A DNA stretch of 59,497 nt. Source: Candidatus Scatosoma sp. GTDB taxonomy: Bacteria; Bacillota; Clostridia; Christensenellales; Borkfalkiaceae. Below, in pieces: positions 27,874 through 43,907 of the stretch (its first letter is position 1; the number at the start of each line of letters is the position of its first letter). Both the position numbers and the translations under genes were made by a program. The stretch lies in NCBI GenBank assembly GCA_045632625.1, contig JAZQWZ010000032.1:1-59497 (forward strand), in the 5' to 3' direction. The notes under the pieces were generated by a model. The model was not told where the DNA came from, ran no database searches, and was given only the letters and a program-made list of their open reading frames with translations.

Positions 27874-28051
27874 ATGATAATCTAAAATTTAACTTCTATA
27901 TTTAAAGTTATTCGGCTAATTCTATAAAAATTTTTACTCGGTTAAATCCGACTAATCTAATTCCGAGTAAAACAAATTAAAAATGGCTGCAAAGTTGCCT
28001 GTAAATAGAAGAAAAAATCACTCAAAAAAATTCAATTTTTTCTATTTGAGA

Positions 28052-28118
28052 TTGGGGTGTGCCCTTACATGTATACAAGCGGCGGCGCGTTGCGCCGCCG
28101 TGTAAGGGCACACCCCAA
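28052..28118. other. Nested GC-rich palindrome (18-bp outer arms plus 9-bp inner hairpin)
   Basis: ttggggtgtgcccttaca (28052-28069) pairs with tgtaagggcacaccccaa (28101-28118). The inner hairpin is cggcggcgc-gtt-gcgccgccg (28080-28100). Confidence 0.8.
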
Positions 28119-28150
28119 CAAACTTAACTAAATCGGTCAAAAGAATTGAA

Positions 28151-28213
28151 ACGGCAAAGGAACGCCCATCGCCGCTGATCCGCTTGGCGATTGGGCGTTA
28201 TTCCATTTTGCCG
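28151..28213 (-). terminator. Long imperfect hairpin just downstream of the Rep stop (terminator or origin element)
   Basis: acggcaaa..aacgcccatcgcc (28151-28173) pairs with ggcgattgggcgtt..ttttgccgt (28187-28213). Confidence 0.35.
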
Positions 28214-28246
28214 TGATTTTTCAATAACGACCTTTTGGCTATCACT

Positions 28247-29347
28247 TTAGTTACAAGTTGTTACTTGGGAAAGCACCTTATACACTTTGCCTTTGTCAAG
28301 CTTTATTATTTCGCCGTATTCCGTAACGATCTCCGCTTCATCCGACACGAGAAAGGACGTTTCATCCTCATTCGTCGGTCCTAATATATCTTTTTTTCTG
28401 ACTGCACACTTTATAAAGGTTGGAATATTCTTCGACCACATCGCTTTTCCGCCTTTATCCATATATTTCCCTATGTAATCATACGCACTTTGGCTTAATT
28501 GCGGTATAATTTCTTCTATCGTCGATAAGCCGAACTTTTCGTTGAACTCCTGATTCCGCGTATGCACTTCCATTTGTTTCGTCATTGGATTATATTTCCG
28601 TTCTTCAAAGTTTTTCGACAATATTTCTTCGTCCTCGATGAACATTAAAGCGTGGAAGTGCAGTCGAACGCTTCCGTCCCAGCCCTCCCATACACCGAAA
28701 TATTTCCAACCCTTTCTATTTACCTTATTCCGTAAATACGTGCGTAGCTTCTTTTTAAACTGCTCCGACGTCATTTTTGCATCGTCATAGGTGAAGGTAA
28801 CGAAATAATTCATACCATTGAGCGAACACTTTCTAATAAAACGGTTTTTTCTCGCATTAAAATTATGGCGTTTGCGCTTAAAGTTTTCTTGCAGGAATTC
28901 TTTCCGTTTTGCTCGGTCGGGGATATACGGCGCAAACTTATCCATCATAATCGCCCAACGCTTTTTCCAACTTTCCTTTGCATATGCGTCGTAATAATGA
29001 TTGAATAGCTCCCGAAGTGTCATTTTAACCGTTTTATTGGGCTTATTTTGAACGTCTTTGACAACTTCAACTACTTGTTCGCCTTGGCAATTATCCTCGT
29101 TATTATGCCCAATTTCAACGGTATATTCTTCTATGATAATTCCGTCGTCATCTTCTTCGTTTATCTTCTCGGATATTAAATCGGAAACGTCTACGTCTAC
29201 GCGCTTTTCGGGGATTTTTCTGCGCTTCTTACCCTTGGGGAGATTTTGCTCCTCAAAGAACCAATGAATTTCACCGCCGTCGTTTGTCAGCTTGCCAAAA
29301 AGATATTCGTCTTCGTCCATTTCTGCAAATGGCTTTTTAATTTTCAT
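28247..29347 (-). CDS. HUH-superfamily rolling-circle replication initiator (two-tyrosine, phiX174 gpA/Microviridae-like motif set)
   Basis: Motif 1 YFVTFTYD, motif 2 LHFHALMF (HUH), motif 3 YDYIGKYMDK (YxxKY, compare phiX174 YVAKYVNK). GGAGG RBS. Confidence 0.75.
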   Translation of the reverse strand: MKIKKPFAEMDEDEYLFGKLTNDGGEIHWFFEEQNLPKGKKRRKIPEKRVDVDVSDLISEKINEEDDDGIIIEEYTVEIGHNNEDNCQGEQVVEVVKDVQNKPNKTVKMTLRELFNHYYDAYAKESWKKRWAIMMDKFAPYIPDRAKRKEFLQENFKRKRHNFNARKNRFIRKCSLNGMNYFVTFTYDDAKMTSEQFKKKLRTYLRNKVNRKGWKYFGVWEGWDGSVRLHFHALMFIEDEEILSKNFEERKYNPMTKQMEVHTRNQEFNEKFGLSTIEEIIPQLSQSAYDYIGKYMDKGGKAMWSKNIPTFIKCAVRKKDILGPTNEDETSFLVSDEAEIVTEYGEIIKLDKGKVYKVLSQVTTCN

Positions 29348-29400
29348 AATACTACCTCCAAAATGTTTATTGTAGGGGTATTATAACAAAAATTTTATAG

Positions 29401-29422
29401 CCTGTCTAAGACGAATTTTGTC
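29401..29422 (-). promoter_or_regulatory. 22-nt promoter-associated box upstream of Rep (shared with the integrase)
   Basis: On the minus strand, gacaaaattcgtcTTAGACagg is followed 18 nt later by TATAAT. It matches 36186-36207 at 21 of 22 positions. Confidence 0.55.
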
Positions 29423-29481
29423 GTATTGGTAGGGAAGAAAAAGGGCAGTACTACGCATTTCAACGCATACCTGCCCTATAG

Positions 29482-29946
29482 TTATTCCGTTTTATTCTGC
29501 ATTTCTTGAACCATATTATCAATGTCTTCTTCGGCAGTACAATCCACCAAGCCATTCATAATTTTAAGGAATTCGTCCAAATCGATTTTGCCTTTTTTCT
29601 TGCAATGCATTAAGCGGCGGAGATAATCTTGACGCTCGTTAAAGCTCTTTAAGGCAAGGAAGAACTCTTCGCCATTCCAATCCATTTCGCCAAACTTTTG
29701 TAAGCGCGTTTGAAAATCAGAATCACGGTATTTTGCGAAGATATATGTACGCGCAACCGTTTGCATTAAATTGCGTTTTTCGTGTTCTATAAGCTCAGGA
29801 AATGTCATTTCGCGTATATCAAGGATTTCTTCGCCTTCATCCTCAGCCGCATCATAAATATGTTGGATATCTTCCGTATCCGCAATAAATTCAAAAGTGG
29901 TATTATCTTCATCGGTTTTATATTTTGCCGTTACTTTGTAATACAT
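29482..29946 (-). CDS. Hypothetical acidic protein
   Basis: 154 aa and rich in D/E. The start overlaps the end of the XRE gene by 16 nt. GGAGGAC RBS. Confidence 0.55.
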   Translation of the reverse strand: MYYKVTAKYKTDEDNTTFEFIADTEDIQHIYDAAEDEGEEILDIREMTFPELIEHEKRNLMQTVARTYIFAKYRDSDFQTRLQKFGEMDWNGEEFFLALKSFNERQDYLRRLMHCKKKGKIDLDEFLKIMNGLVDCTAEEDIDNMVQEMQNKTE

Positions 29947-30179
29947 AATTTCCCGTCCTCCACGTTTTCAATAAACAAATTTACCGCATCTAATTCTAAA
30001 ACGGTTGCGATTTCTTGCGCAATGTTGATATTTTTTACGCCTTGATTTACCCAACGGCTTACGTTACGAAGAGGTGTACCAAACACGTAAGAAAATTCTT
30101 CCTGCGTTCTATATTGCGATAAGTGGATGGCTCTTTTCACGTTTGCGCCAACGACTTCGCTTAACAATTTTTGCTCCAT
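29931..30179 (-). CDS. XRE-family HTH transcriptional regulator
   Basis: ..VGANVKRAIHLSQYRTQEEFSYVFGTPLRNVSRWVNQ.. is the HTH_3 pattern. The second ATG (30179) is preferred because GGAGG lies 6 nt upstream. The ORF could instead start at 30191. Confidence 0.75.
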   Translation of the reverse strand: MEQKLLSEVVGANVKRAIHLSQYRTQEEFSYVFGTPLRNVSRWVNQGVKNINIAQEIATVLELDAVNLFIENVEDGKLCITK

Positions 30180-30214
30180 TTGTGCCTCCATAATCTTATT
30201 TTATATGTATAAAT

Positions 30215-30230
30215 ACGAACATATGTTTGT
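30215..30230. promoter_or_regulatory. Near-palindromic operator candidate overlapping the XRE promoter
   Basis: acgaacatatgtttgt matches its reverse complement at 14 of 16 positions (7 of 8 base pairs between the half-sites). It lies immediately downstream of a minus-strand TATAAT (30239-30234). Confidence 0.35.
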
Positions 30231-30393
30231 TTTATTATACTATAAATTGGAAACATTGTCAAGTGTAAGGGATATAAGTTTCGTGAAAACAAACACTTAT
30301 TTCAAGAAGTTTTGTCGTTTTTTGTAAAAAAGAGGTTTCGCATACATTTTACGCGTAACCTCTTTTGATATACAAAAGCAATTTTAGACGGCT

Positions 30394-31710
30394 TTAAAAG
30401 ACCATTTCAAATGCTTTATAAATCTCTTCATTATCTAAGCCAATTCTCTTAAATAACGCCACATAAATCAAAACAACCATGCTATATGATGTATCAGCAA
30501 TTCGGGGAGTCAATTTTGGTTTTTCGCCATGCGTAACATCATTTCTACATTTGACAAATTTTTGTATTAAATCTTCCGTGATTTCAAGATTTTTATGGGA
30601 TAATATTCTATCAACCACTTCTTTGTTTGCTTCATATAATACGAAAAATTGTTCAGCCGCAGGGAATGTCCATTTTGAAATGCTTCCCACGATAGATTGA
30701 TACGCTTTTTCTGTTAAAGCAGGAGTCTCTTCTTTGTATTCTTTAACAACTTTCTTCACTTTTTTAATAAGCTTTGTGATAATTTCTTCTTTTTCTTTTT
30801 TTATCTTACTTTTAGCAAATTCAAATTCAAGGGCTGTACAAATGTTTTTTATTGAGTTATATGTAACATAATGAGCGTCTGTATTATTATCTGGCAAAAA
30901 GTTTGTAGAAAAATCCTCAGAATCTATTATTTCAATGAATTTCGAAAAAACTCTATCTACGGAACGTAGAGAAATTGTTCTTATTGGTTTCTTATCAACG
31001 ATATCTTTAAAGCCGTGGTTTACATAGATATTTGCATATCCTTTATGAGCTTCGTCCTTAAAATAATATACGATTTTATCAAATTCGATATTTTGCTGCC
31101 TTACCAATAAGGCTACTATTTTTGTTAATAGAAAATAGCATTCTTCAAATCTTTTTAAAGGTTGTTCATTTTCGAATTTTAAAGATATAACCGAATTTGT
31201 TACCCCCAACTTATTATCTTTTCTTTCTGAATAAGGGAAAATACTACTTTTGAAAATACACTGAGTGCCACCAACGCTTACATTATATTTTTTAGTTACT
31301 TCCTTTAACGGTTTAAATTTAATGCAACAACCCTTTTCATACATATTGTCTTCAAACTCAAAAGGAGGATATATTAGCTCTGGATCCAAAATACAATTAC
31401 CCGTACCACCAATAAATTCTATGGAGTCAAATTTTGATAAATCATAATTTCTTAGATTAGCAGAACCAACGGCATAATAATCCACCGAAAATCTAATACA
31501 ATTTATAACCTTTGTTGAGTTTTTTATATGTAATGCTATATTATAATTATTATCAGTAACTCCATATAAGATATCAGGCAATTTAACTTTTTCACTAAAC
31601 CGAAAACCTGACACTCCATTAAATATCCTTCCGATAAATCCGTCTAACGTAAAAGCGTATCGTTTTTCTTGTAATGTTATATAGCCATATATTTTTTCGG
31701 GATGATTCAT
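30394..31710 (-). CDS. HEPN-motif protein (ApeA/Abi-like single-gene defence candidate)
   Basis: 438 aa. The C-terminal alpha-helical region carries KCRNDVTHG, which fits the R-N-x3-H HEPN signature. It has its own transcription unit. Confidence 0.45.
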   Translation of the reverse strand: MNHPEKIYGYITLQEKRYAFTLDGFIGRIFNGVSGFRFSEKVKLPDILYGVTDNNYNIALHIKNSTKVINCIRFSVDYYAVGSANLRNYDLSKFDSIEFIGGTGNCILDPELIYPPFEFEDNMYEKGCCIKFKPLKEVTKKYNVSVGGTQCIFKSSIFPYSERKDNKLGVTNSVISLKFENEQPLKRFEECYFLLTKIVALLVRQQNIEFDKIVYYFKDEAHKGYANIYVNHGFKDIVDKKPIRTISLRSVDRVFSKFIEIIDSEDFSTNFLPDNNTDAHYVTYNSIKNICTALEFEFAKSKIKKEKEEIITKLIKKVKKVVKEYKEETPALTEKAYQSIVGSISKWTFPAAEQFFVLYEANKEVVDRILSHKNLEITEDLIQKFVKCRNDVTHGEKPKLTPRIADTSYSMVVLIYVALFKRIGLDNEEIYKAFEMVF

Positions 31711-31921
31711 AGTCTCACCGTTGTTATTTTACTGTTTCTTTGAGGGGAATGGTTCCGACAATTTCTTACGGACGTATGCGTATAGTAATTTCGCAAAAGC
31801 AACTACAATGGACATTCTGCTTATAAGCAGGGCCTAATTTTCCATTGCATTGAGAAAATCGCTATATTTTCAACAGCTTTTGTCCCCATAAATTATTTTC
31901 AATTATCATCATAAAGGAGTT

Positions 31922-32512
31922 TTAAGATATATTAGTGGAAAATTCTGTGGCAAGTTGTTCACTTAATTCCGACAATGACTTTATAAGACCAAGATTACTA
32001 TATTCAAAGTTTTGAGTCAAACTATCCCATTGCATAAAGCCAAGGCAATGCTCCTTGAGGTCATTGCCAACTACAGTTTTTATGTGTGATAAATGTTCCT
32101 CGGTCGAAAGTATCTGAGATAATCTTGGACTGGAGCCATTATCTATGTTAACAAGCAGTCCATACTTTGCGCCCGAAACAAGACAGTAACCAACAAGTTG
32201 AGACCATTCTTTCAATCCAGCACTATTCATTAGTTTTACTTCAAGAATGAGTATTTCAAACTTTATACCATCCGTAATAAGCGCAAAAATATCAAGATTT
32301 AACGGCGGTACACGTTGAGCAAAATTTGTTGCACATTTGCATTGTTCGGGATTTGCGCTAATAATACGTTGCAAATTAGTCTTCAATTCGCCTATACCCC
32401 AAAACACCTCAAGTTCTCTGTGTTGTTGCGCTCTAAAATTACTTTTTAACTGTGCTTCAATAAAACGCTGTATTTCTGGATAATATGAGACCTCGTTACG
32501 TTTAATCGCCAC
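31922..32512 (-). CDS. Small PD-(D/E)xK nuclease-fold protein (Shedu/NucS-like core motifs)
   Basis: ..LNLDIFALITDG..FEILILEVKLMN..EWSQLVGY.. gives D...ExK...Q. GTG start at 32512 with GGAGGA upstream. It overlaps the upstream gene by 11 nt. Confidence 0.55.
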   Translation of the reverse strand: MAIKRNEVSYYPEIQRFIEAQLKSNFRAQQHRELEVFWGIGELKTNLQRIISANPEQCKCATNFAQRVPPLNLDIFALITDGIKFEILILEVKLMNSAGLKEWSQLVGYCLVSGAKYGLLVNIDNGSSPRLSQILSTEEHLSHIKTVVGNDLKEHCLGFMQWDSLTQNFEYSNLGLIKSLSELSEQLATEFSTNIS

Positions 32513-33893
32513 TTCTTAAGTCCTCCTCTGTAATTTGGCGAACCAACAATTTATATTCGTTCGATAAATCACGAGTAACAAGTCGACTATACACAGCAGG
32601 ATTTTTAGCACCAATTAAAGAACCTCTCTCATTACCAAGTATAACGAGTGGCGTTAAAAGTTCAGGCTTACGAATCTCAACTGTTTCCTCGGGATTATTT
32701 GATATATGACTCTCAATTACAGCAGTATATCCTTTGGGACGCTTGCCAAATAGTTCATTATCATTAGCAATTACATAAGCAATGGCTTGAAGAACCTCCG
32801 CAATAGGATAACCATTATGTTGATTGCTTCCATAAATAAGCGCATTATTGTCGTTTTTGTATAAAGTATACAATGCTGCAATAGAGATGTTTTGAATAGA
32901 GTACGTCCTTGCAGATAATAAGGGGTCGTTTGCGATAATAGAAGTTATACGTTCCTTCGTTTCCTTGCATAATATAGGAAAAGGATTAACTAAATCGCCA
33001 AGATTTCTGAAACAATTACAAACTTTATCATAAGGAGCATGTTCACAACCCATTACGGCGCAAAAATGTCGAAAGTGGATATAATGTCCCCCGCGAATGT
33101 TATCAGGTAACCGCAAATCGTTTTCAGCAGGATGTACCGTAGAAGGAGTTACATGAAAATCACGTTCTTCACATATTTCGGCTGTATGAGTCTGTTGTTG
33201 TAATTGGCGGTTCTCATTCGATGTTTCGGCTTTTGTACGAAAAGCAAAAGCACCAAATTGTGCGTATTGGTCAAGTAAAATTCGAAGCTTAAATCCTTTG
33301 TTCCATTGGGAATAATATGGATCACTCGTACAATGAATATTGGGGTGATTCCAATTCACTTGATCCGGAATACAATTTATACTATAAAGCAATCTACACA
33401 AGTCGCAAACAAACTGGAAATTATATCCTTTAATTTCAAATGACAGTATTTGATGCTCGTCCGAAAATCTTCTTTGGGATTTTGCCATGCTCCCAATCGT
33501 ATCAGCCAAACCAGCAACAAATCTGCGCTTAAGATTGTCGTCAATTAATTCGGGCACGATTGCATTAATATTTGCAGTGCCACGTATTTCGCCTTCACAC
33601 GTAATGCCATACTGCATTAAATCTTCTTTTACATCAGAGATATCGCCTTCGCATAAAATTGTCCATGTCCCACCAGGAGTAGTTTCATACTGTACAGATA
33701 AATTGTAGACAGCTCGAAACATTTGTCCAACTTTCTGAAGAATATCTCTTGCAATTTGACCAGCTCTTTGCGGATTATCTATATATGAACCCCATTTTTT
33801 GTAAGGTAAACGAATCCTAAATACATCTTCCGCTGTTCCAAATATGCCACCGCCAATCATTAATCCAAGAAGGTAGGCTTTATCCGTATTCAT
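32502..33893 (-). CDS. Degenerate double-LAGLIDADG-like protein with an uncharacterised C-terminal half
   Basis: The start is trimmed to MNTDKAYLLGLMIGGG (ATG 33893, AAGGAGG upstream). The second motif RRFVAGLADTIGS lies ~118 aa later. Both lack the acidic residue at the catalytic position. Confidence 0.45.
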   Translation of the reverse strand: MNTDKAYLLGLMIGGGIFGTAEDVFRIRLPYKKWGSYIDNPQRAGQIARDILQKVGQMFRAVYNLSVQYETTPGGTWTILCEGDISDVKEDLMQYGITCEGEIRGTANINAIVPELIDDNLKRRFVAGLADTIGSMAKSQRRFSDEHQILSFEIKGYNFQFVCDLCRLLYSINCIPDQVNWNHPNIHCTSDPYYSQWNKGFKLRILLDQYAQFGAFAFRTKAETSNENRQLQQQTHTAEICEERDFHVTPSTVHPAENDLRLPDNIRGGHYIHFRHFCAVMGCEHAPYDKVCNCFRNLGDLVNPFPILCKETKERITSIIANDPLLSARTYSIQNISIAALYTLYKNDNNALIYGSNQHNGYPIAEVLQAIAYVIANDNELFGKRPKGYTAVIESHISNNPEETVEIRKPELLTPLVILGNERGSLIGAKNPAVYSRLVTRDLSNEYKLLVRQITEEDLRSGD

Positions 33894-33903
33894 AAAAGCC
33901 TCC

Positions 33904-35178
33904 TTAATTGTTAGATTGAATAAATACTTGTTCCATAATTGCAGTAGCAATATTATATGCCAAATTAACAGGAACAGCGTTGCCAATTACTTTATACATA
34001 GCAGTGATATTTTTGGGAGAATCGGTTATGAATTTGAAGTCATCAGGAAAGGTTTGAATACGTGCAACTTCTCGCACTGTATATCTCCTGTTTTCTGTAG
34101 GGTGAATGATGCCGCAATTTTCGGGCTGTGCAGAAGCTGTAATCGTCCCACAAATTTCATCTCTTGAAAAACGTCTATAAAAATTAGGGGAATGATATTT
34201 TTTCATATCATCTCGGATTTTTTTGAAGCGTGGAGCTAAATGTTCGTACGGAACATCCTTCCAAGAGCCTCCTTCAGGAATATATTGAATCATTTCCAAT
34301 GCCTGCGGAGAAAAAGGCCAATCCACATTGTTGTCAAGCTCCACAGGAACATCTAAAATATTTCGTAATGTTAATTTTTCTTTGCTTTGTTTTTCAGGGA
34401 ACACAAATGTCTTCTCTAAATCTTTACGTATCCCAATAAAGAGGACTCGTTGACGATTTTGAGGAACGCCATAGTCGGCAGCATTAACAAGTTGGTATAC
34501 TACATTATATCCAATACCATTCATAGCGGATAAATCCTCAACAATTACATCCGCCAAATTTCTACCGTCTATATATTTAGTCGATAATAAACCCTTAACG
34601 TTCTCAAATACAATAACCTTAGGCATTTTGCGCTCAATAATACGCAAACATTCTTTGTATAACATTCCACGAGAATCATGTACGCCTTTGCGACTTCCCG
34701 CATTAGAGAAGGGCTGGCAAGGAAAACCCGCTGTTAAAATGTCCCCATCGGGAATCTCTTCTTCTCCAACAGTCAAAATATCGCGAGTATCAATTTTTCC
34801 TAAATTAAGAGAATATACGGCTTGAGCATCTGCATCAAAGTCATTTGCGTAAACAATATCAAAGCCAGCTTTTTTGAAACCAGTATCCATACCTCCGCAA
34901 CCAGAAAAAAGTGAAATGAGCTTAGGCGAATTAGAATTATTTTCGCTCAAACACAAAGAAGAGCTTTCAATTGGTTGATTTGCCGCGCTTATTGTAGTTG
35001 ATTTGGAATTTGATGTTGCAGTAATATAACTTTCAATATCACAAAGCCTAATTCTCCAGGAACGATTGGCTAATTTGGAAGCTTGTAAACGTCCATCAGT
35101 AATTAGGCGACGTACCGTTTTTTCGGATAATTGTAAATATTCAGCCGTCTGCGAAACAGTTAATAAATCAGTGTTCAT
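33904..35178 (-). CDS. DNA (cytosine-5)-methyltransferase with N-terminal MerR/excisionase-type HTH
   Basis: HTH LLTVSQTAEYLQLSEKTVRRLITDGRL, then motifs I LFSGCGG, IV GFPCQPFS, VI ENVKGL, VIII QNRQRV and X GNAVP. The start is trimmed to MNTDLL (ATG 35178, GGAGG upstream). Confidence 0.88.
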   Translation of the reverse strand: MNTDLLTVSQTAEYLQLSEKTVRRLITDGRLQASKLANRSWRIRLCDIESYITATSNSKSTTISAANQPIESSSLCLSENNSNSPKLISLFSGCGGMDTGFKKAGFDIVYANDFDADAQAVYSLNLGKIDTRDILTVGEEEIPDGDILTAGFPCQPFSNAGSRKGVHDSRGMLYKECLRIIERKMPKVIVFENVKGLLSTKYIDGRNLADVIVEDLSAMNGIGYNVVYQLVNAADYGVPQNRQRVLFIGIRKDLEKTFVFPEKQSKEKLTLRNILDVPVELDNNVDWPFSPQALEMIQYIPEGGSWKDVPYEHLAPRFKKIRDDMKKYHSPNFYRRFSRDEICGTITASAQPENCGIIHPTENRRYTVREVARIQTFPDDFKFITDSPKNITAMYKVIGNAVPVNLAYNIATAIMEQVFIQSNN

Positions 35179-35351
35179 AAAATTTAGACCTCCCATTGTG
35201 TATATATTATAGCATTTCGTATAGAGTCTGTCAAGCAATTTGTGGAAAGTATTGGACAAAATAGGACTAAATTAAATATACGCTTTTTTGGATGCGATTT
35301 TAGTATTGTTATCATGTATACCCGATTTTACCTTTCGGTTGTGGCTATGGT

Positions 35352-35496
35352 AGCATAGGATAACCCGAAAGTAAACGCAAAAAAATTCTTGCGTTTTTAT
35401 CAATTGTTGCTTTATCCGAGCAACAATTTTTTTCGTTTCTCGTTGACTTTCGGGAAGATTTCAACTCGTACATGGTATTCCTCTTTATCCTATGCT
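35352..35496 (+). promoter_or_regulatory. Long-hairpin element, copy 1 (structured leader / ssDNA-promoter-like element upstream of the sigma-like gene)
   Basis: Stem A is 35352-35362 with 35486-35496 (11 bp). Stem B is 35364-35377 with 35441-35454 (14 bp, one A-G mismatch). Two internal terminator-like hairpins include aattgttgc/gcaacaatt plus a T7 run (35402-35433). Confidence 0.55.
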
Positions 35497-35545
35497 CCTT
35501 TGCCCCTGCCCAAAAGGCAAAAGATAAAATCGGAGGTAAACTCAA

Positions 35546-36157
35546 ATGCTTAAATCTCACAATCCTTACAACGTGTTATCGGAAATCATCTCTTTCGAGA
35601 ACGTTCAACAAATGGGCGAAATGATCGCCCTGAAAACTCTGCGTGGTCGTTACGCTTACGCTCGTTATGCCTTGGAATGGCTCTACGTTGGTCTTGTAAA
35701 AGATTTAAACCGTGGCAACGACGCTCATCACATATTTTCAGACGCTTATGACCTTGCACAAACTGCTATTTGCTTCTTATGCGAATTTGTAGGTAAGAGC
35801 TTAAACGACGTTTATATGATTAAAAACGGTCAAGAAATCACCATTAAGAAAGCTACGTATTTGTTAGTTGGTCGCACTATTGATAGAATGCGTAGATACA
35901 TGTCAAGAAGCCGTGATATTAACGATTACACGGAAGAACTCTCTGTGGAAATCGACCACTACGAAGAAAAAGATTATACCGAAGTGGATAACAAAATCGA
36001 ACTTCTTAATTTGAAACCTCGTGACCGCGCTGTATTAGATTGCTATATGGCAGGTATGACTTGCAACGAAATTGCAGAATTCCTCGACATCGACCGTATT
36101 ACCGTATGGCGTAGAAGAACGCGTGCACAGGTAAAATATAAAGCATTATTTTTCTAA
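35546..36157 (+). CDS. Sigma-70-family-like factor (region 4 HTH), mobile-element type
   Basis: C-terminal ..LKPRDRAVLDCYMAGMTCNEIAEFLDIDRITVWRRRTRA.. is the region 4.2 pattern. GGAGG RBS. Confidence 0.65.
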   Translation: MLKSHNPYNVLSEIISFENVQQMGEMIALKTLRGRYAYARYALEWLYVGLVKDLNRGNDAHHIFSDAYDLAQTAICFLCEFVGKSLNDVYMIKNGQEITIKKATYLLVGRTIDRMRRYMSRSRDINDYTEELSVEIDHYEEKDYTEVDNKIELLNLKPRDRAVLDCYMAGMTCNEIAEFLDIDRITVWRRRTRAQVKYKALFF

Positions 36158-36185
36158 AATTAAGTAGTACGCCAAAATTTGTCTT

Positions 36186-36207
36186 AGACAAAACTCGTCT
36201 TAGACAG
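36186..36207 (+). promoter_or_regulatory. 22-nt promoter-associated box upstream of integrase B
   Basis: gacaaaactcgtcTTAGACagg is followed 18 nt later by TACTAT. gtcttagaca occurs twice (36181-36190 and 36197-36206). Confidence 0.5.
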
Positions 36208-36353
36208 GCGTTTAAAAATATGATACTATACTTACGCTCTCAAGGACAAACTATACTTTTACAGCTTGGGAGTTAGCAAGAAAATTAGGTAAAAGTAAAC
36301 GCGTTTATGCTTCCCGACGGGGAAGTTGACCAAAATTTTCAAGAAGGAGGACA

Positions 36354-37568
36354 ATGACAACCGCTGAATTAAAAATTACATCAAATTACATCCAAGCACT
36401 CGCATCGCAGCCTGATGCAACCGAACGCATTTCTCTATTTTTAAGCGGTCTTTTGGCTATGCAGCCGAAGGACAAATTAAACGCGCCTAAAAAGAAGAAA
36501 AAATGCGTTTCAACGTTAATTCATTTTACACAAAAGGAGATTTCTAAAATGGCAAAAACATTTAAGAAAGAGTTCATTGGAAACGGCTTAGCCGCGCACG
36601 TCTTAAAGCGTGATTTGTACAAAAAAGCCGTGTACTACATTATTCGTTACCGCCGTAACGGATATGAAATCCAAGTGGGCGCAACCACGTTGGAAGAGGC
36701 TAAGGAAAAATTCCTTGAAGCAACCAGAGCGGAAAATATTGAAAAATACCGCAAAAAGGAAAAGCGTGCCAAGAAAAATACTTTCCTGTTTGTAACCCAA
36801 GAGTGGTTAGAGTTCAAGAAAGATAAATTGAACGCGCGCACGCATAAGAATTATGAGAGCTACTGTCAAAGATATTTATATCCCGTTTTGGGTGATATGG
36901 ATATTTCCGTTATCAAGACCATCGACATCAACGGCATTATGACAAAAGTCGAAGGGCGTGTATATGAAGATTTGCGCGTAGTTCTCAATTCGGTATTCAA
37001 ATACGCACTCGCAAGCGGTGTGATTACTCACAATCCTATGCTTTTAATTCCCTTCAAAAAAGCGGAAAGAAACAACCGCCGCGCTATGACGGAAGACGAA
37101 GTCAAGAAGATGATAGAACGCTTGAATACGGACGAATACAGCGATTATAAGCGCACGTTTTTGATTTTGTTATTCTTCGGGCTTCGTCCTTGCGAATTGG
37201 AAGATGCTCGATTTGAAGGCGATTTCTTGATTGCACGGAATGCCAAGCGAAAAGGCGGTAAAATTGAGTATAAAAAGATACCCATTTGCAAGCAAGCACG
37301 TGAAATGTTGGACTTGGATGCGCCCGTGGAAGCTTTACATAGAACGGACGTATTGAACCGCATTTTTAAGCGAATTATGGAAGACGAAGAAGTTACGCAA
37401 TACTTCCTGCGCCATACGTTTGCAACCATTTGTCAACAATACGTTCGCCCTGACATTGTGGATATTTGGATGGGTGACAGCTCTGAAAGATTGGTTGGAA
37501 GAGTATATACACACTTCCCCGATAAATTTATGATTGAGCAAATGCAAAACGTCATCTTTGACATTTAA
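36354..37568 (+). CDS. Tyrosine recombinase/integrase (copy B)
   Basis: ..YFLRHTFATICQQYVRPDIVDIWMGDSSERLVGRVYTHF.. The N-terminus MTTAELKITSNYIQALAS is nearly identical to copy A. GGAGGAC RBS. Confidence 0.9.
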   Translation: MTTAELKITSNYIQALASQPDATERISLFLSGLLAMQPKDKLNAPKKKKKCVSTLIHFTQKEISKMAKTFKKEFIGNGLAAHVLKRDLYKKAVYYIIRYRRNGYEIQVGATTLEEAKEKFLEATRAENIEKYRKKEKRAKKNTFLFVTQEWLEFKKDKLNARTHKNYESYCQRYLYPVLGDMDISVIKTIDINGIMTKVEGRVYEDLRVVLNSVFKYALASGVITHNPMLLIPFKKAERNNRRAMTEDEVKKMIERLNTDEYSDYKRTFLILLFFGLRPCELEDARFEGDFLIARNAKRKGGKIEYKKIPICKQAREMLDLDAPVEALHRTDVLNRIFKRIMEDEEVTQYFLRHTFATICQQYVRPDIVDIWMGDSSERLVGRVYTHFPDKFMIEQMQNVIFDI

Positions 37569-37762: not shown

Positions 37763-37890
37763 GCATAAACACGTCAAATATACAAAAAAATCGGGCAAAT
37801 ATGCGTTTATTTTGCACAATTACCCGATTTTGGTGCGGTCGACAGGAATTGAAGCGGTTTCCACTTTGCTGAAAACCTTTATTTATAAGG
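37763..37890 (-). repeat. att-like pseudo-tRNA block, copy 3 (right border of element B)
   Basis: 91-bp repeat 37763-37853 ending in the 23-mer (37831-37853), then N22, then the 15-mer core (37876-37890). Confidence 0.8.
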
Positions 37891-38043
37891 GATTCAGCCA
37901 TCTGCCCCCGAAATGCCCCCAAGTAAAAACGTGATTTTTGCAATAGAAAAATGTAGCATTTTTTGTGGCAAAATTTGCCCCGAATAATCGACAGGTCAAA
38001 CACTAAACAATCGAACCTACCTTTTTTTAACTCGAAAAACTGC

Positions 38044-38136: not shown

Positions 38137-41100
38137 CTATATTTTTTTAATTTTTACTTGATGCTTATACTTAGTAATTTTAAATATTCCATGCCTTTCA
38201 AACAGATTTAGAATTTTTGTATCATATTCTTTCATTGGAACTTTAATTTCCAGTTGTGTTTCCAATGAAGCCACTTTGGGCACCGCTTGTTTTAAGTAAC
38301 TGAAAACTTTTGACTTGTCTATGTCGTTCCCATATACATCCAACAAATCTATTTTTATTCCAGAATCCATACTACTTGAAAGTAAAATATTCAATAACCG
38401 TTCGCAACATCTTTCAATTTTATTTTTGATGATGATTTTACTGATATGCTCTTTAAGCGTATCGGTGCTCGGCGTATACGTTTGCTGCATCTTATAAATA
38501 AGCTTTGCCTTTATTTCATTCGACAAATCCTGATTATTCAACAGCAAATCCATAATATTATTCGCAAACGTTGTACCATTCATTTCTTCTATAACGTCGG
38601 GAGCTTTTAAGAGAATGGGAATTAGAACTTTGATTGTAGACTTCGCTAAAACCAGATTTTCTACATTCGCTTCTATAACACAGTTATTAACTAAAATCGC
38701 CGCGATTTCATCTCTCGTTATTTCATTTGCTTTTAATTTTACCGCGAATCCTTTTGAGTATATAGAGAAACCAGTCAAGTCGGTAAAAGAAACTTCATTG
38801 CAAAGCAACAATTCAATATCCTTATCCTCTAATGCGTCCGCACTCAATATTTGTGCATTTCGATCAAGATAGGTAAGAATTGATTGTAATGTAATATATT
38901 TCTTCTTTTTAGACATTACGACATTTGCCCATGTGGGATAAATTTTATCTTGTTCATAGGCATACAATAACAATTCCTTATCTATCCCCTCATAAACGTC
39001 AAAGGTCGTTTTTAAGTTGGAAACAAATTTTTTATGCTCGCTAAGTGGCAATGTTTTATTCTTTAAAATCCATTCGATGCCTATTTGTTCTTCCTCACAA
39101 ATACTTACATTAGACGCATATTCATTTATAATGGTCTGATGATTTGCTTCAACGTAAGCAATAAAAGTAGGATTGTTTGTTTTTAAAACATACGACAATA
39201 CAGCCTTTTGACAATTTTCAAAATTATAATGACTGTGCAAAATAAATTCTAGATTTTTTAGACTTATTTCATACAAATCATTCTTTATTAATTCATCCAT
39301 TACGTATTGAGCTATATGATCATTATTCATACCCTCGTGGCTTACAGTAATTAATTGCACGCTTAATTTTTGTAAAACATCAACAAATAGATCTACATCA
39401 GCATGAATATAGGCAAACATACCAATCGCATTTGGATGTTTTGATAAATATTGCGTTAATACATTTTCTTGATTTTGTCTGATAAATAGCTCAATATCGC
39501 CATACGCAAACAATGCGGACAATAAGCGATCTTTTTGTTCTGGAGACATAGATTCATCCAATAATATATCCCGACAAAAACAATCATAGTCAGGTAAAAT
39601 TTGATTGAATAAGACCGTAAATTCTTGTTGATCGCTTAAGTACTGTTTCCAAAAGCCAATAACTTCAGGGCTTCTTGACGTTAAATAATGCTTTAAACTT
39701 TTTTGTTTCTGTTTGACTTCTTCGTCATTCGTTTTGGCGTTTAATGTTGCTTCAATTAGACTGTAATTAAAAATAAACCTATCCGAAAATCTTTCTTGAG
39801 AAATTTCTCGCATTACCAGTTCAGGTTTTTCCAAGCTTTGCATCACATCTATTGGCTGTTTTTCCAATACTTTTCTCACGAACGCCTGATCTCGTGCTGA
39901 AATTAAGTCATCTTCTTTACTAACAATGTAATCTTTATATGTTTCATCTATATAACCATTAGCTAATAAAAAGCGTTTTAACTCCCCTTGTATGTCCGTT
40001 GACTGTTCCAACGTTAAATATTCGCTCATGGTGTAATTGCGACACTGCCGAATTTGTTGTTGTAAACCATCAATTTCTAACTGCAGTTGTTTTTGCTTGC
40101 TCTCTGATTGATCTTGAATACGCTGTTCTATATCGACAACGTTTTCCCCAAGATCTTCATCAATCTGCCACATCTCAGCATACCAATGATAATTCCCATG
40201 ATAAACAATACGCCCTGTGACCCCTTCAAAACTTTTCAACTGAGACACATCCGTCCCATGATAATTCCCTAATTGATATCGAGTCACCATACAGCCTATT
40301 ACTGCTTTCCGTAAAAGCTCAAAAGAATGAATAGCCGCTTGTTTCGCCTCTAATTTTTTATTGTTTAAGGCTGCTATTTTTTCCTCTTTTTGTTTGATTA
40401 AATCAACGACATAGCTGTGTTTACTTTCAAACGCATCGGCTAAATCTCCTTTTCCATATTGCAACTCGGCAAAATCCGCTGGATGCAGATTTTTATAAAC
40501 CATCAATGAAAACAATTTAATATTCTTCTGAGAATCGGAAAGCCTCCAAAGCTTTAAAAGGTGATAATACGTAACATAATCATTGACTATATTCTTTAAT
40601 ACACGCATTTCTGTAATAAAATGAGAAACTTCGTGTATATACAGCTCCGGCAATTCCATTTCTTTGGAACATGTAGACTCTAATTCTTTTTTCAGCATAC
40701 CACGCACATTTGTAAAACTTAAAACAGGAATCAAAGACAAAATATAATCAAAAAATTTCGCCCTGTCGTTTTCAGTTCTAAAAAGATCGTCTTTTATTGC
40801 GTAAACAAACGTTACTTTTTGTTTTACAAGTTGGCTGTTATTAATTAAAAAATTCAATTCGCGTAATTTGGAAAAAATACTCGTATTATTAAACCGGTCC
40901 AAATCCTCAATCACAACCACCTGAACTTTTGTTTTTTGAAAATAATAAATGATCTCGTCAATAAATGTATTTAAAACAGAACCCGAGGTTAATTCACAAA
41001 ATTCCGCCTGAATATCTTTTACCGCGATTTTATTAATTTTATTATTATAAAACATTAAATATATAAAAAGTAATGCTGTAGTTGCAGCACAGCCAGAAAA

Positions 41101-41634
41101 TATATAAAAATTAGAGCCGTTAGAATTGGGAAGCAACTTAAAAAATTCCAATATAGCACAACCAATCAATGCAATCGTAGCAATTAAATAGAGCGCCAAG
41201 CGAAATGAAAGCCATCCATGGCTTGTATTAATACGATTAATCTTAGAATACGGAACTTTATTCTTACCAACCTTATAAAGGAATTGTTCCAAAATGCTTT
41301 TTTCTACAGCACAATCAATATCTTGCACCCCACCATGCTTGGAATCGCTTGGCTGCTCTTCGTTAATTGTTTGCGTATCATTAAAATTAGCCAATGATAT
41401 CTTCGTTAATTTAGTATCCTTACATAACAGTCTTTTATGATATTTATGCTGATACGTTTTGATTAAACTGCTTTTGCCCGCACCATACGCTCCAATTACG
41501 CCTATATTGCAAACATCTTTATCTTGAATTTTTTCATGTAAAATATCCGCATAAACCCCATATTTCTGCTCATCTATTACCGGACTATTTGATACCAATT
41601 TTAATGATGTAGAATTTACTTTAAATCTCTTCAT
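38137..41634 (-). CDS. KAP-family / YobI-like P-loop NTPase with transmembrane insertion
   Basis: The start is trimmed to MKRFKVNS (ATG 41634, GAGGAGA upstream). Walker A GAYGAGKSS. Two hydrophobic helices (WLSFRLALYLIATIALIGCAIL, FYIFSGCAATTALLFIYLMFY) sit between the Walker motifs. Walker B VVVIEDLDRF. 1,165 aa. Confidence 0.75.
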   Translation of the reverse strand: MKRFKVNSTSLKLVSNSPVIDEQKYGVYADILHEKIQDKDVCNIGVIGAYGAGKSSLIKTYQHKYHKRLLCKDTKLTKISLANFNDTQTINEEQPSDSKHGGVQDIDCAVEKSILEQFLYKVGKNKVPYSKINRINTSHGWLSFRLALYLIATIALIGCAILEFFKLLPNSNGSNFYIFSGCAATTALLFIYLMFYNNKINKIAVKDIQAEFCELTSGSVLNTFIDEIIYYFQKTKVQVVVIEDLDRFNNTSIFSKLRELNFLINNSQLVKQKVTFVYAIKDDLFRTENDRAKFFDYILSLIPVLSFTNVRGMLKKELESTCSKEMELPELYIHEVSHFITEMRVLKNIVNDYVTYYHLLKLWRLSDSQKNIKLFSLMVYKNLHPADFAELQYGKGDLADAFESKHSYVVDLIKQKEEKIAALNNKKLEAKQAAIHSFELLRKAVIGCMVTRYQLGNYHGTDVSQLKSFEGVTGRIVYHGNYHWYAEMWQIDEDLGENVVDIEQRIQDQSESKQKQLQLEIDGLQQQIRQCRNYTMSEYLTLEQSTDIQGELKRFLLANGYIDETYKDYIVSKEDDLISARDQAFVRKVLEKQPIDVMQSLEKPELVMREISQERFSDRFIFNYSLIEATLNAKTNDEEVKQKQKSLKHYLTSRSPEVIGFWKQYLSDQQEFTVLFNQILPDYDCFCRDILLDESMSPEQKDRLLSALFAYGDIELFIRQNQENVLTQYLSKHPNAIGMFAYIHADVDLFVDVLQKLSVQLITVSHEGMNNDHIAQYVMDELIKNDLYEISLKNLEFILHSHYNFENCQKAVLSYVLKTNNPTFIAYVEANHQTIINEYASNVSICEEEQIGIEWILKNKTLPLSEHKKFVSNLKTTFDVYEGIDKELLLYAYEQDKIYPTWANVVMSKKKKYITLQSILTYLDRNAQILSADALEDKDIELLLCNEVSFTDLTGFSIYSKGFAVKLKANEITRDEIAAILVNNCVIEANVENLVLAKSTIKVLIPILLKAPDVIEEMNGTTFANNIMDLLLNNQDLSNEIKAKLIYKMQQTYTPSTDTLKEHISKIIIKNKIERCCERLLNILLSSSMDSGIKIDLLDVYGNDIDKSKVFSYLKQAVPKVASLETQLEIKVPMKEYDTKILNLFERHGIFKITKYKHQVKIKKI

Positions 41635-41766
41635 TTTATTGTTTCTCCTCGACAACCACTTCACATTTGTAGAACAATTTAACATATTTTAAACAACTTG
41701 CATGTCAATAATTAACGCACAAAAATTAAAAAACGTTTATTGACCTCTAGTGTTAGAAACGCTCTT

Positions 41767-43161
41767 TTATAGACTTTCTATCAAAATCAAATTCGAGTTT
41801 TTCTTCGCTTCATCACGCAAACCTTTTGTAAAGCCCGCCGTACTGAAAATAATATATTGAACGTTTTTCGCACCCGTCAAAGATACTATGGCGGGCGTTT
41901 TTTCTTGCAACGTGTGCAACAGTTCCAACCCTTTTTCTTTTTTCGTATACTTGCATTCGCCCAAAATTAAATTCTTTTCTTCGCTTCCGATTGCAACGAT
42001 ATTGATTTCACCTGCTTTGCTCCCCCAATAACGCCCCACCTTTTCAAACGGAAGCGTTTTGCCTTTTGCAGACAATTCCCACATCTTTTCGCGACAAACG
42101 TCCTCATATACGAACGAGGCAAAATTTTGAATAAATCCTTCTTTGATTTTTGCCATAACGTATTCGTCCTCGCCCTTTTCAAGATAAGAACGATACGGAT
42201 AAATATACTTAAACCAAAAGGCAATATAATTGTCGGTAATACGATACAGCCCACTTTTACTCTTTTCCGATGAAACCTCCGTTGCAGGAACTTCCCGTTC
42301 AATCAAATCAAGATCGGTTAAAACTTTCAAATATTTCGTTAAACTCGTAGCCTTCATATCAAGACTCGATGCAATCTCCGAAAGCTTTCTATTCCCCATC
42401 GCAATCGTTTTGATAAGTGAAAAATAGCTACCTATCTCCGTAACTTCACGTTGCAACAAAAAATATGGTTCTTCATATAAAAAGCTCTGACGGTTCAAAA
42501 CGTTTTCCCGAATGGCTTCATATACGTCTTTATAACCTTGAAAAACTTCTATATATTTAGGCACACCGCCCGTTACTGCATAAAACGGTATAAGCTGTTC
42601 TGCCGTCATATTATTATAAAACTCTCCATAATGCTTAAAAGCAATTTGTTTGAGCTTTATCTGTGCCGTGCGTCTTCCATATAACGGGCTGCCGTAATCA
42701 AGCGTTTGCGACTTCATAAGCGAAATAAGCGAACCGCAAAGAATCAGCATTATATTTTCATTGACAAGCAACGTATCCCAAGCCTTTTGCATAATCGACG
42801 GGAACGCCGAATTTGCCTTACCGATATATTGAAATTCATCCATTACGATAATTTTCTTCGTTTCGGTTTTATAATTCACAAGCGTTTTGAACACCGTCAA
42901 CCAATCCACGTTTGCGGACTTTAACAATTCATTATCCGTGTACTCGGCGACCTGCAATTTGAACGCATTCAAATTCTGCATTTCCGATTCTTCCGTCGCC
43001 AAAAAATAAAGCGTGTCTTTATGGCATTTCAAAAATTCATTGATGAGCGATGTTTTCCCTACACGTCTACGCCCATAAACAATTACGAGCGAAGAAACGT
43101 TACTCTCATATTGCTTTTCTAACGTTTCTAATTCTTTTGTACGATTTACGAATTTTTCCAT
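41767..43161 (-). CDS. AAA ATPase of the archaeal-ATPase (PF01637-like) + DUF234 type
   Basis: Walker A YGRRRVGKTS, Walker B IIVMDEFQY, and a C-terminal ..INIVAIG..LILGECKYT.. nuclease-fold-like DUF234 pattern. Confidence 0.7.
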   Translation of the reverse strand: MEKFVNRTKELETLEKQYESNVSSLVIVYGRRRVGKTSLINEFLKCHKDTLYFLATEESEMQNLNAFKLQVAEYTDNELLKSANVDWLTVFKTLVNYKTETKKIIVMDEFQYIGKANSAFPSIMQKAWDTLLVNENIMLILCGSLISLMKSQTLDYGSPLYGRRTAQIKLKQIAFKHYGEFYNNMTAEQLIPFYAVTGGVPKYIEVFQGYKDVYEAIRENVLNRQSFLYEEPYFLLQREVTEIGSYFSLIKTIAMGNRKLSEIASSLDMKATSLTKYLKVLTDLDLIEREVPATEVSSEKSKSGLYRITDNYIAFWFKYIYPYRSYLEKGEDEYVMAKIKEGFIQNFASFVYEDVCREKMWELSAKGKTLPFEKVGRYWGSKAGEINIVAIGSEEKNLILGECKYTKKEKGLELLHTLQEKTPAIVSLTGAKNVQYIIFSTAGFTKGLRDEAKKNSNLILIESL

Positions 43162-43895: not shown

Positions 43896-43907
43896 GGAGA
43901 TACAAAA

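Follow-up and report, generated by a model that had tools for sequence, protein, structure and literature searches.

What is the function of the two long imperfect hairpins that stand in front of two different operons in a 59,497-nt stretch of DNA from Candidatus Scatosoma sp. (GenBank assembly GCA_045632625.1, contig JAZQWZ010000032.1; hereafter "the window", meaning this whole stretch)? A first-pass annotation of the window had offered two readings, (a) a structured 5' leader or attenuator RNA and (b) a promoter active on single-stranded DNA (ssDNA), of the Frpo/ssi kind known from the leading regions of conjugative plasmids. Here we describe about 50 homologues of the hairpin in gut Clostridia, which always stand directly before either a sigma-like/recombinase operon or an ArdA-PcfK-PcfJ operon in integrative islands encoding a phiX174-type rolling-circle Rep. 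Most likely these hairpins form in DNA, not in RNA, and, judging from their sequences, they probably serve as promoters and complementary-strand origins that are active on ssDNA, of the same kind as Frpo and the single-strand origins (sso's) of rolling-circle replicons and unrelated to either in sequence. Reading (b) is favoured here with two amendments: the promoter strand is the complement of the 5' arm and not the arm with TTGACT, and the setting is not the leading region of a conjugative plasmid but chromosomal integrative islands of gut Clostridia with a rolling-circle Rep.

Both copies start with a common 14-mer, CTATGGTAGCATAG, which is found exactly at 35345-35358 and 43375-43388 and, with up to two mismatches allowed, at no other site of the window (0.13 expected by chance); since this box is near-palindromic, both sites also match on the reverse strand. 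The outer stems of the two copies differ in sequence with their pairing kept, and the inner stems share an A-G mismatch opposite the G of TTGACT (Table 1). These features, like the terminator-like hairpins with T-runs inside the elements (at 35402-35435 and 43440-43463), are as the first-pass annotation had described them, and only the limits of the elements had been drawn too narrowly. Pairing spans ~35322-35533 and ~43355-43588, including an inverted repeat (I2) at 35326-35363 / 35485-35522 in copy 1, and instead of stopping 40-50 nt before the ribosome-binding site (RBS), as had been thought, it extends into the RBS region, the paired flanks ending at the real RBS on the right and at a mirror-image, RBS-like GGAG on the left. 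Whether as RNA or as ssDNA, both copies fold far better than shuffled sequences: against 200 dinucleotide shuffles per fold, 0/200 of which folded as well as the real sequence, the RNA folds have z-scores of -5.4 for copy 1 and -6.9 (-6.85) for copy 2, and the ssDNA fold of copy 1 reaches -48.2 kcal/mol on the minus strand (z -7.65) and -45.2 kcal/mol on the plus strand (z -7.35), with -44.7 kcal/mol (z -5.9; -5.89) for the minus strand of copy 2. Across five members of the group, ssDNA folds have z-scores from -5.6 to -8.1.

Homologous loci, numbered with L, were collected by pattern and by protein similarity. A scan of one genome per species for the box and AGTAAACG gave 15 loci, all of them in metagenome-assembled genomes of Clostridia, many named Candidatus Scatosoma, and a metagenome scan that fixed only AAGTAAACG, CGTTGACTT and CTATGC and left the box free gave 18 further loci, four new box variants among them. 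Searches for homologues of PcfJ or of the sigma-like protein, with the hairpin unconstrained, brought in three more types (L034-38, L039 and L043) and loci L044-L049; types F, G and H were found by PcfJ protein homology alone. In 18 diverged homologues, standard pairs occupy 89.1% of cells versus 82.2 +/- 0.7 in shuffles (0/500), and both sides have changed in 15/37 pairs where 7.7 are expected (0/500 shuffles), in each case with a shuffle that ignores relatedness. When the partner is slid by 1-3 columns, pairing falls to 33-52%, and this control and the number of distinct pair types point the same way as the shuffle, though the latter ignores kinship. Compensation is seen in the outer stem (GGATAA/TTATCC, GGCTAA/TTAGCC, GAAC/GTTC, GCC/GGC and GCACAG/CGGTGC) as well as in the inner stem (CCCGAA/TTCGGG, TCAAA/TTTGA and CAGA/TCTG). 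Given the fold z-scores, the changes on both sides of pairs and the collapse of the slid controls, sequence comparison indicates that the structure of the hairpin is under selection, which the compensatory changes between the two window copies had already led the first-pass annotation to propose. The apex is 60 to 123 nt long among the homologues, and its loop sequence is free to vary even in close relatives. One locus, L012, has a truncated hairpin (912-1010), in which the 5' arm and the start of the apex are joined straight to part of the 3'-arm insertion, with no operon after it.

The two arms differ in what they encode. We compared the reverse complement of the 5' arm (A') with the 3' arm (B), both read from apex to base, in 11 diverged types, and found them to be colinear copies, with fixed differences between them, down to the RBS-like GGAG. 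A' holds, in this order, an A/T-rich stretch, a -35-like hexamer, a 16-17-nt spacer ending in TRTGn and a -10-like hexamer. The -35-like hexamer is TTTACT in 9/11 types (TTTACA in L039, TTGACT in L043), TRTG and the 16-17-nt spacer are each present in 11/11, and the -10-like hexamers (TACCAT, GACAAT, GAGAAT, AACAAT, TAAAAC, TACAAC, TAAAAT or TACGAT) have A at the second position (-11A) in 11/11 and at the fifth in 11/11, T at the sixth (-7T) in 9/11, and vary elsewhere; their mean match to TATAAT is 4.1/6, versus 1.7/6 for the arm that faces them. A profile of the nAnnAT type together with a Firmicute '-16' TRTG is the information profile of the sigma-A -10 element. Written as TT[T/G]AC[T/A], 16-17 nt, TRTGn-nAnnA[T/C], a -35 and a -10 at promoter spacing on one strand of a hairpin, as in Frpo/ssi, are found in 11/11 types. 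The first-pass annotation could place no convincing -10 box; there is one, and it is CTATGGTAGCATAG read on the opposite strand (TATGC-TACCAT, 16-17 nt from TTTACT) rather than a box on the TTGACT arm.

B, in turn, carries a short T-rich bulge, followed by TTGACT, 3-8 paired bases, an insertion and, opposite the -10, pyrimidine-rich hexamers (TCCTTT, TCCCGT, TTTTTT). The insertion measures 19-31 nt by automatic alignment and lies on B in every measurable type (two low values were mis-anchored, and counting by hand gives 31 nt for L034 and 23 nt for L043); all length irregularities fall on B, and promoter geometry is kept by A' alone. In the predicted folds the -35 is double-stranded and the -10 falls where pairing is imperfect or the strand is looped out: the -10 hexamer of the window copies is half paired, and in L039 (TTTACA-16-TGTGc-TAAAAT) TAAAAT is predicted to form exactly the 6-nt internal loop between two solid helices. 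As a conjecture, the conserved mismatch at the -35 may make this element better in the hairpin than in duplex A', because the template there has the base complementary to the consensus G, whereas A' itself has T.

Other promoter assignments were tried and rejected. On the plus strand the near-palindromic box reads TRTGg-TAGCAT, and a plus-strand promoter in the 5' arm is ruled out by its loss in types C (TCGCAT), D (TCTCAT) and L022 (TTGCAC), three of the five box variants, in all of which the minus-strand -10 survives. The TTGACT arm has no conserved -10 at sensible spacing, there being only a TATAAT 11 nt after TTGACT in some variants, and an ECF-type promoter (GTAAAC ... CGT) for the sigma-like protein lacks conservation in its -10 part.

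In duplex DNA the A' promoter points leftward, away from the conserved operon, and in the folded minus strand it points into the operon. This right-hand operon is the only constant neighbour of the hairpin. The left side is not conserved and holds defence-type cargo in either orientation, a tRNA (L034, L043), origin scars (L003, L004) or, in type C, a pseudo-ORF; this last open reading frame (ORF; MSGTTK...), which mirrors the RBS/ATG on the right, was dismissed as a gene, being 25-45 aa long, frameshifted and not conserved. No conserved duplex promoter was found between hairpin and RBS, by inspection of all types and promoter scans, nor upstream of the hairpin.

Downstream of copy 1, the first gene encodes a protein of 203 aa whose C-terminal half resembles sigma-70 region 4 of the extracytoplasmic function (ECF) kind, below family thresholds, and the synteny of hairpin, sigma-like gene and recombinase recurs in L001-L033. 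A tyrosine integrase follows the sigma-like gene, directly or past small ORFs, in the window, L008, L015, L003 and L013, and L010 has a second hairpin immediately before an integrase; type C has the hairpin followed by the sigma-like gene, then a 310-aa HUH Rep (REP_ORF2-G2P, E 4.5e-13) and then a large serine recombinase. Operons homologous to that of copy 2 carry ArdA in L034-L041 and L043 and are preceded by the same kind of hairpin, and in L034-38 and L043 they start 200-300 nt into an element whose insertion site directly follows a tRNA gene. The early anti-defence expression envisaged in the first-pass annotation suits the relatives of copy 2, which serve ardA, and not copy 1, which serves a sigma-like gene and an integrase. 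In IncI1 and pESBL plasmids, ArdA is one of the leading-region genes switched on soon after transfer, the induced operons there being under ssDNA promoters (PMC12672017), and the genes served here (ArdA, PcfK/PcfJ, recombinases, Rep and the regulator) fit early or establishment roles. A protein with MutS mismatch-binding domain I recurs beside PcfJ (window 46339-47394, L034 8980-9996, L043 9042-10001), fused to a PcfK-like domain in the window and in L034, in the latter within the ArdA operon, and is a candidate establishment or anti-repair factor. A PHROGs search of the small ORFs and an exact-protein look-up of the first ORF after copy 2 found nothing. PcfJ and PcfK also occur inside a phage-like gene block without the hairpin (L042), which is therefore not obligatory for PcfJ genes.

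Copy 1 lies inside an 11.7-kb island bounded by att-like 138-nt direct repeats (26024-26161 and 37763-37900; 91-97% identical), with the integrase at its right end. The window island, L034-38, L044 and type C encode homologous HUH Reps that have HFH and YxxKY motifs, the window Rep being 32-42% identical to its counterparts in L034 and in type C, and a phase as ssDNA is therefore to be expected. On the rep-sense strand, immediately past the end of rep, the window has an origin-like region with a perfect 18-bp inverted repeat (28052-28069 / 28101-28118), an inner GC hairpin and CTTGTAT in the loop (28073-28079, minus strand); the same architecture is found in L034, L003 and L044, with repeat arms of 16-18 bp that covary between loci, and always on the strand of the promoter arm. 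CTTGTAT resembles CTTG|ATA, which we take to be the nick sites of phiX174, pC194 and IS91. This nick-like motif lies on the A' strand in seven locus types (window, L034-38, L044, L003, L004, L010b and L017), that is, wherever it was found near the hairpin. Should the Rep nick at CTTGTAT, the displaced or transferred strand would be the one whose fold aims the promoter at the operon.

Two placements of the hairpin relative to the nick-like site recur. In L003, L004, L010b and L017 it lies 60-750 nt 5' of CTTGTAT on the same strand (in L003 and L004, 0.1-0.75 kb ahead of the nick-like sites on the strand presumed to be nicked), which is the classical sso-before-dso layout of rolling-circle plasmids, dso being the double-strand origin. 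The window has the same order, hairpin before CTTGTAT, with cargo and rep between them. In L044 and L034 the nick-like site is 2.3 kb and 5.6 kb away, respectively, and the DNA that comes first after this site is the operon, which is directed toward it. By our own derivation (with PMC11541004), this is the geometry of the F leading region and Frpo.

Several observations on the origins stand beside these. Between the hairpin and the complete origin, L003 (6350-6640 in original coordinates) and L004 (380-762) have 5-7 tandem origin half-sites (CTTGTAT and right arm ACAAGCACACGCC). These may have been left as scars by Rep-mediated termination or recombination that took place repeatedly, and could account for the variation of cargo at the left edge of the hairpin. 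On the minus strand of the window, the origin-like region (27778-28200) includes repeated iteron units of the AGAATTAACGAT type. In L045 (16072-17094), a sigma-like/hairpin island has a Mob_Pre (MOBV) relaxase in place of the HUH Rep, so the hairpin module travels with more than one kind of ssDNA-generating enzyme.

We envisage the following mechanism. The phiX174-type Rep of the island would nick the origin, and the minus strand would become single-stranded during rolling-circle replication of the excised island or during transfer. Once single-stranded, the ~200-nt inverted repeat would fold and rebuild a promoter of the host sigma-A type, with the reverse complement of the 5' arm as non-template strand and the B' arm as template strand, which takes all the bulges. 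The folded promoter would present an A/T-rich duplex upstream, the -35 TTTACT, a 16-17-nt spacer, TRTG and an nAnnAT -10 in a mismatch bubble. RNA polymerase would then start ~30-40 nt before the RBS and run out of the base of the hairpin rightward into the operon before the second strand exists, copy 1 driving the sigma-like regulator and the integrase, and copy 2 the PcfK/PcfJ operon (with ArdA in relatives); the same RNA could prime synthesis of the second strand. In duplex DNA the -35 and -10 are reversed and the apex hairpin with its T-run would insulate against read-through. The operon is expected to be silent or low while integrated, because the duplex promoter is reversed, no conserved promoter belongs to the operon itself and read-through would be stopped by the apex T-run. 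It is an even question, in our estimate, whether gut Clostridia hold a widespread and undescribed class of ssDNA-only promoters in islands with a phiX174-type Rep, which fire outward as duplex and which the fold would turn toward the operon for a burst of regulator, recombinase, Rep and anti-restriction genes (ArdA, PcfK-MutS, PcfJ) together with priming. Sequence comparison shows the covarying structure, the asymmetry of the promoter anatomy, the genes that accompany it and a Rep with its origin-like region; use of the fold by RNA polymerase, the identity of the displaced strand, a double role of the RNA as messenger and primer, and silence as duplex are inferred.

A number of points weigh against this proposal. 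Both strands of the hairpin fold almost equally well, and wobble pairs, tried as a test of strand, decide nothing (13 G-T pairs on the plus strand versus 19 on the minus strand, equal to A-C on the plus strand), so neither picks a strand. The same -35 and -10 would also serve as an ordinary leftward duplex promoter, which in the window could drive the cargo and rep; because of this, conservation of A' is by itself no proof of a role on ssDNA. The window copies match the consensus at only 8/12 positions plus TRTG and are missed by a simple promoter scan, types E and F lack the -7T, and the T-runs after the apex hairpins resemble true RNA terminators. We know of no documented precedent for a 19-31-nt bulge of the template strand between -35 and -10. 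The nicked strand of the origin is assigned by analogy, no Rep or origin was found within reach in L039 and L045-L049, and in type C the origin was not located and the Rep lies inside the hairpin-driven operon. The orientation of rep, considered as a guide to the displaced strand, is inconsistent, being opposite to the hairpin operon in the window and L034 and the same in type C.

A transcript started upstream could instead fold, on the plus strand, into a structured 5' leader or attenuator whose internal terminators regulate read-through, as in reading (a). The RNA folds are strongly better than shuffles, terminator-like hairpins with T-runs occur in every type, plus-strand cargo reads toward the hairpin in L016, L046 and L047, and regulation through leader terminators and antiterminator RNAs is indeed known from mobile elements of Firmicutes (Tn916 T1/canT, PMC11658703). 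Against such a leader, homology between loci begins only ~25-45 nt before the stem and this flank is itself paired, so that a conserved promoter would have no space; types C, D and L022 have lost the plus-strand -10 look-alike, and a start at this look-alike would exclude the outer stem, which nevertheless covaries. Although terminator stems are present, the long stem cannot be an anti-terminator, because its closing 3' strand, the would-be competitor, is transcribed only after the terminator. Moreover, G-U pairs (13) do not outnumber A-C mismatches (19), unlike in a selected RNA helix, and the bulges on one arm and the promoter spacing on the other are left unexplained. A search of the window with Rfam 15 gave no hit at gathering score; at E<=1 the only hit with E<0.01 was ncS54, at 25.4 bits versus a threshold of 43. 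With terminator stems in its favour, and the missing competition, upstream promoter and Rfam family against it, we regard an RNA leader as distinctly unlikely.

Two rivals accept a role in DNA. The region could act as duplex, comprising a leftward sigma-A promoter with a degenerate inverted duplicate, inverted protein sites (CTATGC, CGTTkACTT) and an apex insulator, and a loop could form through binding of its sites by a repressor or by the sigma-like/helix-turn-helix (HTH) protein. The complement of the 5' arm is indeed a plausible duplex promoter, which in the window is co-directional with all cargo genes and rep (33904-35259, on to 28247); the arms are colinear copies down to the GGAG, the 14-mer itself is near-palindromic and an HTH protein is always encoded next door. 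Elsewhere, however, this leftward promoter mostly faces nothing conserved (the tRNA of L034/L043, the origin scars of L003/L004, cargo either way), and the spacers between the boxes are wholly different by type yet complementary within each element, which protein sites alone would not need. Nor would gene conversion between the arms account for this, as the mismatch at the -35, the bubble at the -10 and the insertion on one side would be lost by it, yet nearly every type retains them; we hold the duplex explanation to be unlikely. The hairpin might otherwise be a DNA-processing site, either a folded recombination site for the adjacent recombinase, comparable to the attP of CTX phage or the attC of integrons, or part of a Rep origin or oriT, which would agree with its place beside tyrosine or serine recombinase genes at many loci (directly before the integrase in L010), with its conserved unpaired bases in an imperfect hairpin and with the origin half-sites that abut it in L003, L004, L010b and L017. 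This is very improbable: the long direct repeats or tRNA-end junctions sit 0.2-2.4 kb or more away, the same hairpin precedes ArdA/PcfJ operons without a recombinase nearby, recombinases of both the tyrosine and the serine type co-occur with it, the apical loops, the usual place of HUH nick sites, vary freely, and a separate, well-conserved origin with its own nick-like motif lies elsewhere in the island.

To our knowledge, ssDNA promoters have so far been documented mainly in E. coli plasmids, and experimental demonstrations are confined to plasmids of enterobacteria. Promoters of the Frpo type attract RNA polymerase when the transferred strand folds and are shut down once the DNA becomes double-stranded (PMC11541004; PMC12672017; bioRxiv 10.64898/2026.01.09.698686), and a search by sequence homology has found 13,089 copies of Frpo/ssi, none of them in a Gram-positive island (PMC11541004). 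The promoter proposed here resembles Frpo/ssi/ssp of F, ColIb-P9 and pESBL (Masai & Arai 1997; PMC11541004; PMC12672017; bioRxiv 10.64898/2026.01.09.698686) in being a long imperfect hairpin that would rebuild a -35 and -10 in the transferred strand, in its place before early operons (ardA, for example), apparently at the end far from the origin in an operon that points to the nick site, and in its predicted inactivity as duplex and the possible priming of the second strand by its RNA. Unlike them, it occurs in Clostridia and not in Enterobacteria, and in chromosomal integrative islands with a rolling-circle Rep rather than plasmids with a MOBF/MOBP relaxase; one class of hairpin serves a regulator and a recombinase instead of anti-defence genes, and it has a Firmicute-typical TRTG '-16', a 19-31-nt template bulge and a promoter strand that as duplex would also fire in the opposite direction. 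Copy 1 matched none of 72,556 plasmid records in a distant-mode blastn search, so homology to Frpo/ssi is not detected in sequence; a megablast of the copy 2 locus gave no match either, and BLAST against plasmids and phages and a pattern scan of viral contigs found nothing.

The sso's that depend on RNA polymerase (ssoA, ssoU, ssoT and sso1 of ICEBs1; PMC4595007; PMC5714925) are likewise folded ssDNA recognised as a promoter, specific to strand and orientation by design, and their elements have a HUH/rolling-circle initiator. Like them, the hairpin lies upstream of the nick-like site, on what would be the displaced strand, in L003 and L004, and the sequences of L010b and L017 suggest the same placement relative to the double-strand origin. 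Membership in a known sso family is not indicated, as there is no BLAST match to plasmids and the apical loops are variable and without TAGCGT. We take TAGCGT to be CS-6 and, together with RSB, to be among the motifs by which sso's are defined. Known sso's differ in giving rise to a short primer and in not standing before an operon as its promoter, whereas the present fold ends at an RBS. The minus-strand origin of f1/M13, reportedly described by Higashitani and colleagues in 1997, is said to have displaced-strand hairpins that mimic -35 and -10 with unpaired -10 bases and are recognised by sigma-70 holoenzyme. It is likewise a hairpin promoter on the displaced strand of a replicon with a G2P-type Rep, but differs in its two adjacent hairpins, ~20-nt primer, lack of gene expression and unrelated sequence.

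The nearest precedent in Firmicutes is EGeRS1 of pLS20-family plasmids, repeats of at least ~325 nt without a recognisable promoter in the fold (PMC8708921). There the transferred strand is the non-template strand, for which reason its authors rejected an ssDNA promoter (PMC8708921). EGeRS1 too is a repeated, highly structured non-coding sequence before several establishment or anti-restriction operons of a Firmicute conjugative element; the present hairpin is shorter, has a proposed promoter in the fold and bears no sequence relation to it. In Tn916, T1 and canT provide an insulating terminator in a Firmicute integrative element near an orf7-like sigma/xis/int module, but they act at the level of RNA and need an upstream promoter, and canT lies between orf8 and xis and not before the sigma-like gene (PMC11658703). 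No published description of the present hairpin element was found in the literature searched. By analogy, we propose that it acts like Frpo/ssi/ssp and the RNA polymerase-dependent sso's but falls outside the sequence-based definitions of both.

Promoters on ssDNA explain how F-like plasmids express anti-defence genes within minutes of entry. If the present proposal is true, it would describe the first family of ssDNA promoters outside enterobacterial plasmids and the first tied to the expression of an integrase, and the same strategy would have evolved independently in chromosomal islands of Firmicutes; what is new would be the phylum, the carrier islands with a phiX174-type Rep, the driven genes (regulator, recombinase, Rep) and the dual orientation of the promoter strand. 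It would answer how an incoming or freshly displaced single strand expresses integrase and anti-restriction genes, and provide a sequence-and-structure signature for leading regions with which new anti-defence candidates could be found in uncultured gut Clostridia, among them the PcfK-MutS-domain-I fusion, PcfJ and many small ORFs. It would also provide a compact genetic switch, active on ssDNA and inactive on double-stranded DNA. As the cargo by the hairpin is almost always a defence system, the islands matter for the movement of defence genes.

Table 1. Coordinates of the hairpins, their promoter-like elements, the operons and the replication functions in the window.
Feature	Position	Strand	Description
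Copy 1, whole imperfect hairpin	35322-35533	minus (proposed folding strand)	ssDNA fold, inverted repeat
Copy 1, outer stem	35352-35363 / 35485-35496		AGCATAGGATAA pairs with TTATCCTATGCT
Copy 1, inner stem	35364-35377 / 35441-35454		CCCGAAAGTAAACG pairs with CGTTGACTTTCGGG; TTGACT at 35443-35448
Copy 1, apex	35378-35440	plus	A-run/T-run pairing upstream of the -35; terminator-like hairpin 35402-35428, T-run 35429-35435
Copy 1, insertion in 3' arm only	35455-35484	plus	30 nt; bulge on the would-be template strand
Copy 1, -35-like hexamer	35370-35375	minus	TTTACT (AGTAAA on plus); faces TTGACT of the other arm, giving the conserved mismatch
Copy 1, TRTGn extended -10/'-16' motif	35353-35357	minus	TATGC, in the 17-nt spacer 35353-35369
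Copy 1, -10-like hexamer	35347-35352	minus	TACCAT, part of CTATGGTAGCATAG; faces TCCTTT (35496-35501), only partly paired
Copy 1, putative target operon	35546-37568	plus	sigma-70 region-4-like gene 35546-36157, RBS GGAGG 35532-35536; tyrosine integrase 36354-37568 (Pfam, NCBIfam)
Copy 2, whole imperfect hairpin	43355-43588	minus	ssDNA fold and RNA fold
Copy 2, outer stem	43380-43390 / 43541-43551		GTAGCATAGCC pairs with GGCTATGCTAC
Copy 2, inner stem	43396-43407 / 43495-43506		GGAAGTAAACGG pairs with CCGTTGACTTCC
Copy 2, 3' arm	43495-43551	plus	CCGTTGACTTCC, ~29-nt insertion, then GGCTATGCTAC
Copy 2, terminator-like hairpin with T-run	43440-43463
Copy 2, promoter-like arm	43377-43404	minus	TTTACT 43399-43404, 16-nt spacer with TATGC 43383-43387, TACCAT 43377-43382
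Copy 2, putative target operon	43605-49692	plus	12 mostly small ORFs including GP88-like, PcfK-MutS-domain-I fusion, PcfJ and DUF6809 (Pfam, PHROGs)
HUH rolling-circle Rep	28247-29347	minus	REP_ORF2-G2P, Pfam E 6.5e-11; HFH and YxxKY motifs; 32-35% identity to Reps of L034 and type C
Rolling-circle origin-like region	28050-28200	minus	hairpin with TCGCCAAGCGG; 18-bp inverted repeat with CTTGTAT

The variable cargo beside the hairpin is nearly always defence-like (window 26286-35259, L002, L006-L008, L016, L026, L029, L039, L044-L047) and includes restriction-modification, HEPN, SLFN/AlbA-HATPase, AAA_21/AbiEii, SIR2 and a Pycsar-like pair (AGS_C and PycTM), so that the hairpin islands look like carriers of defence genes. 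In the window, the gene to the left of copy 1 encodes a C5 cytosine methyltransferase and is independent of the promoter in the hairpin arm, because it has a perfect promoter of its own (TTGACA-17-TGcTATAAT, 35206-35234, minus strand). The 138-nt repeats that bound the island contain, on the minus strand, TTCAATTCCTGTCGACCGCACCA, which resembles the 3' end of a tRNA, and a terminator; ARAGORN called no tRNA or tmRNA there.

A second, decayed island may start at copy 2; within the window it holds neither a Rep nor a recombinase, and RHS genes come after it. Between the right repeat of the first island and copy 2, the minus strand (38137-43161) encodes a YobI-like P-loop NTPase of 1182 aa and an ATPase_2/DUF234 protein, which may or may not be part of that second island. 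In type C, L016 has a second, smaller related hairpin (8560-8740 in reverse-complement coordinates), consisting of GTAAACGGGAAAGGGG ... CCCCTTTCCCGTTTG followed by GTCGAAAGAC and an RBS, before the serine recombinase. This smaller hairpin runs into the end of rep, and a 13-bp inverted repeat enclosed in it could be the origin of that element.

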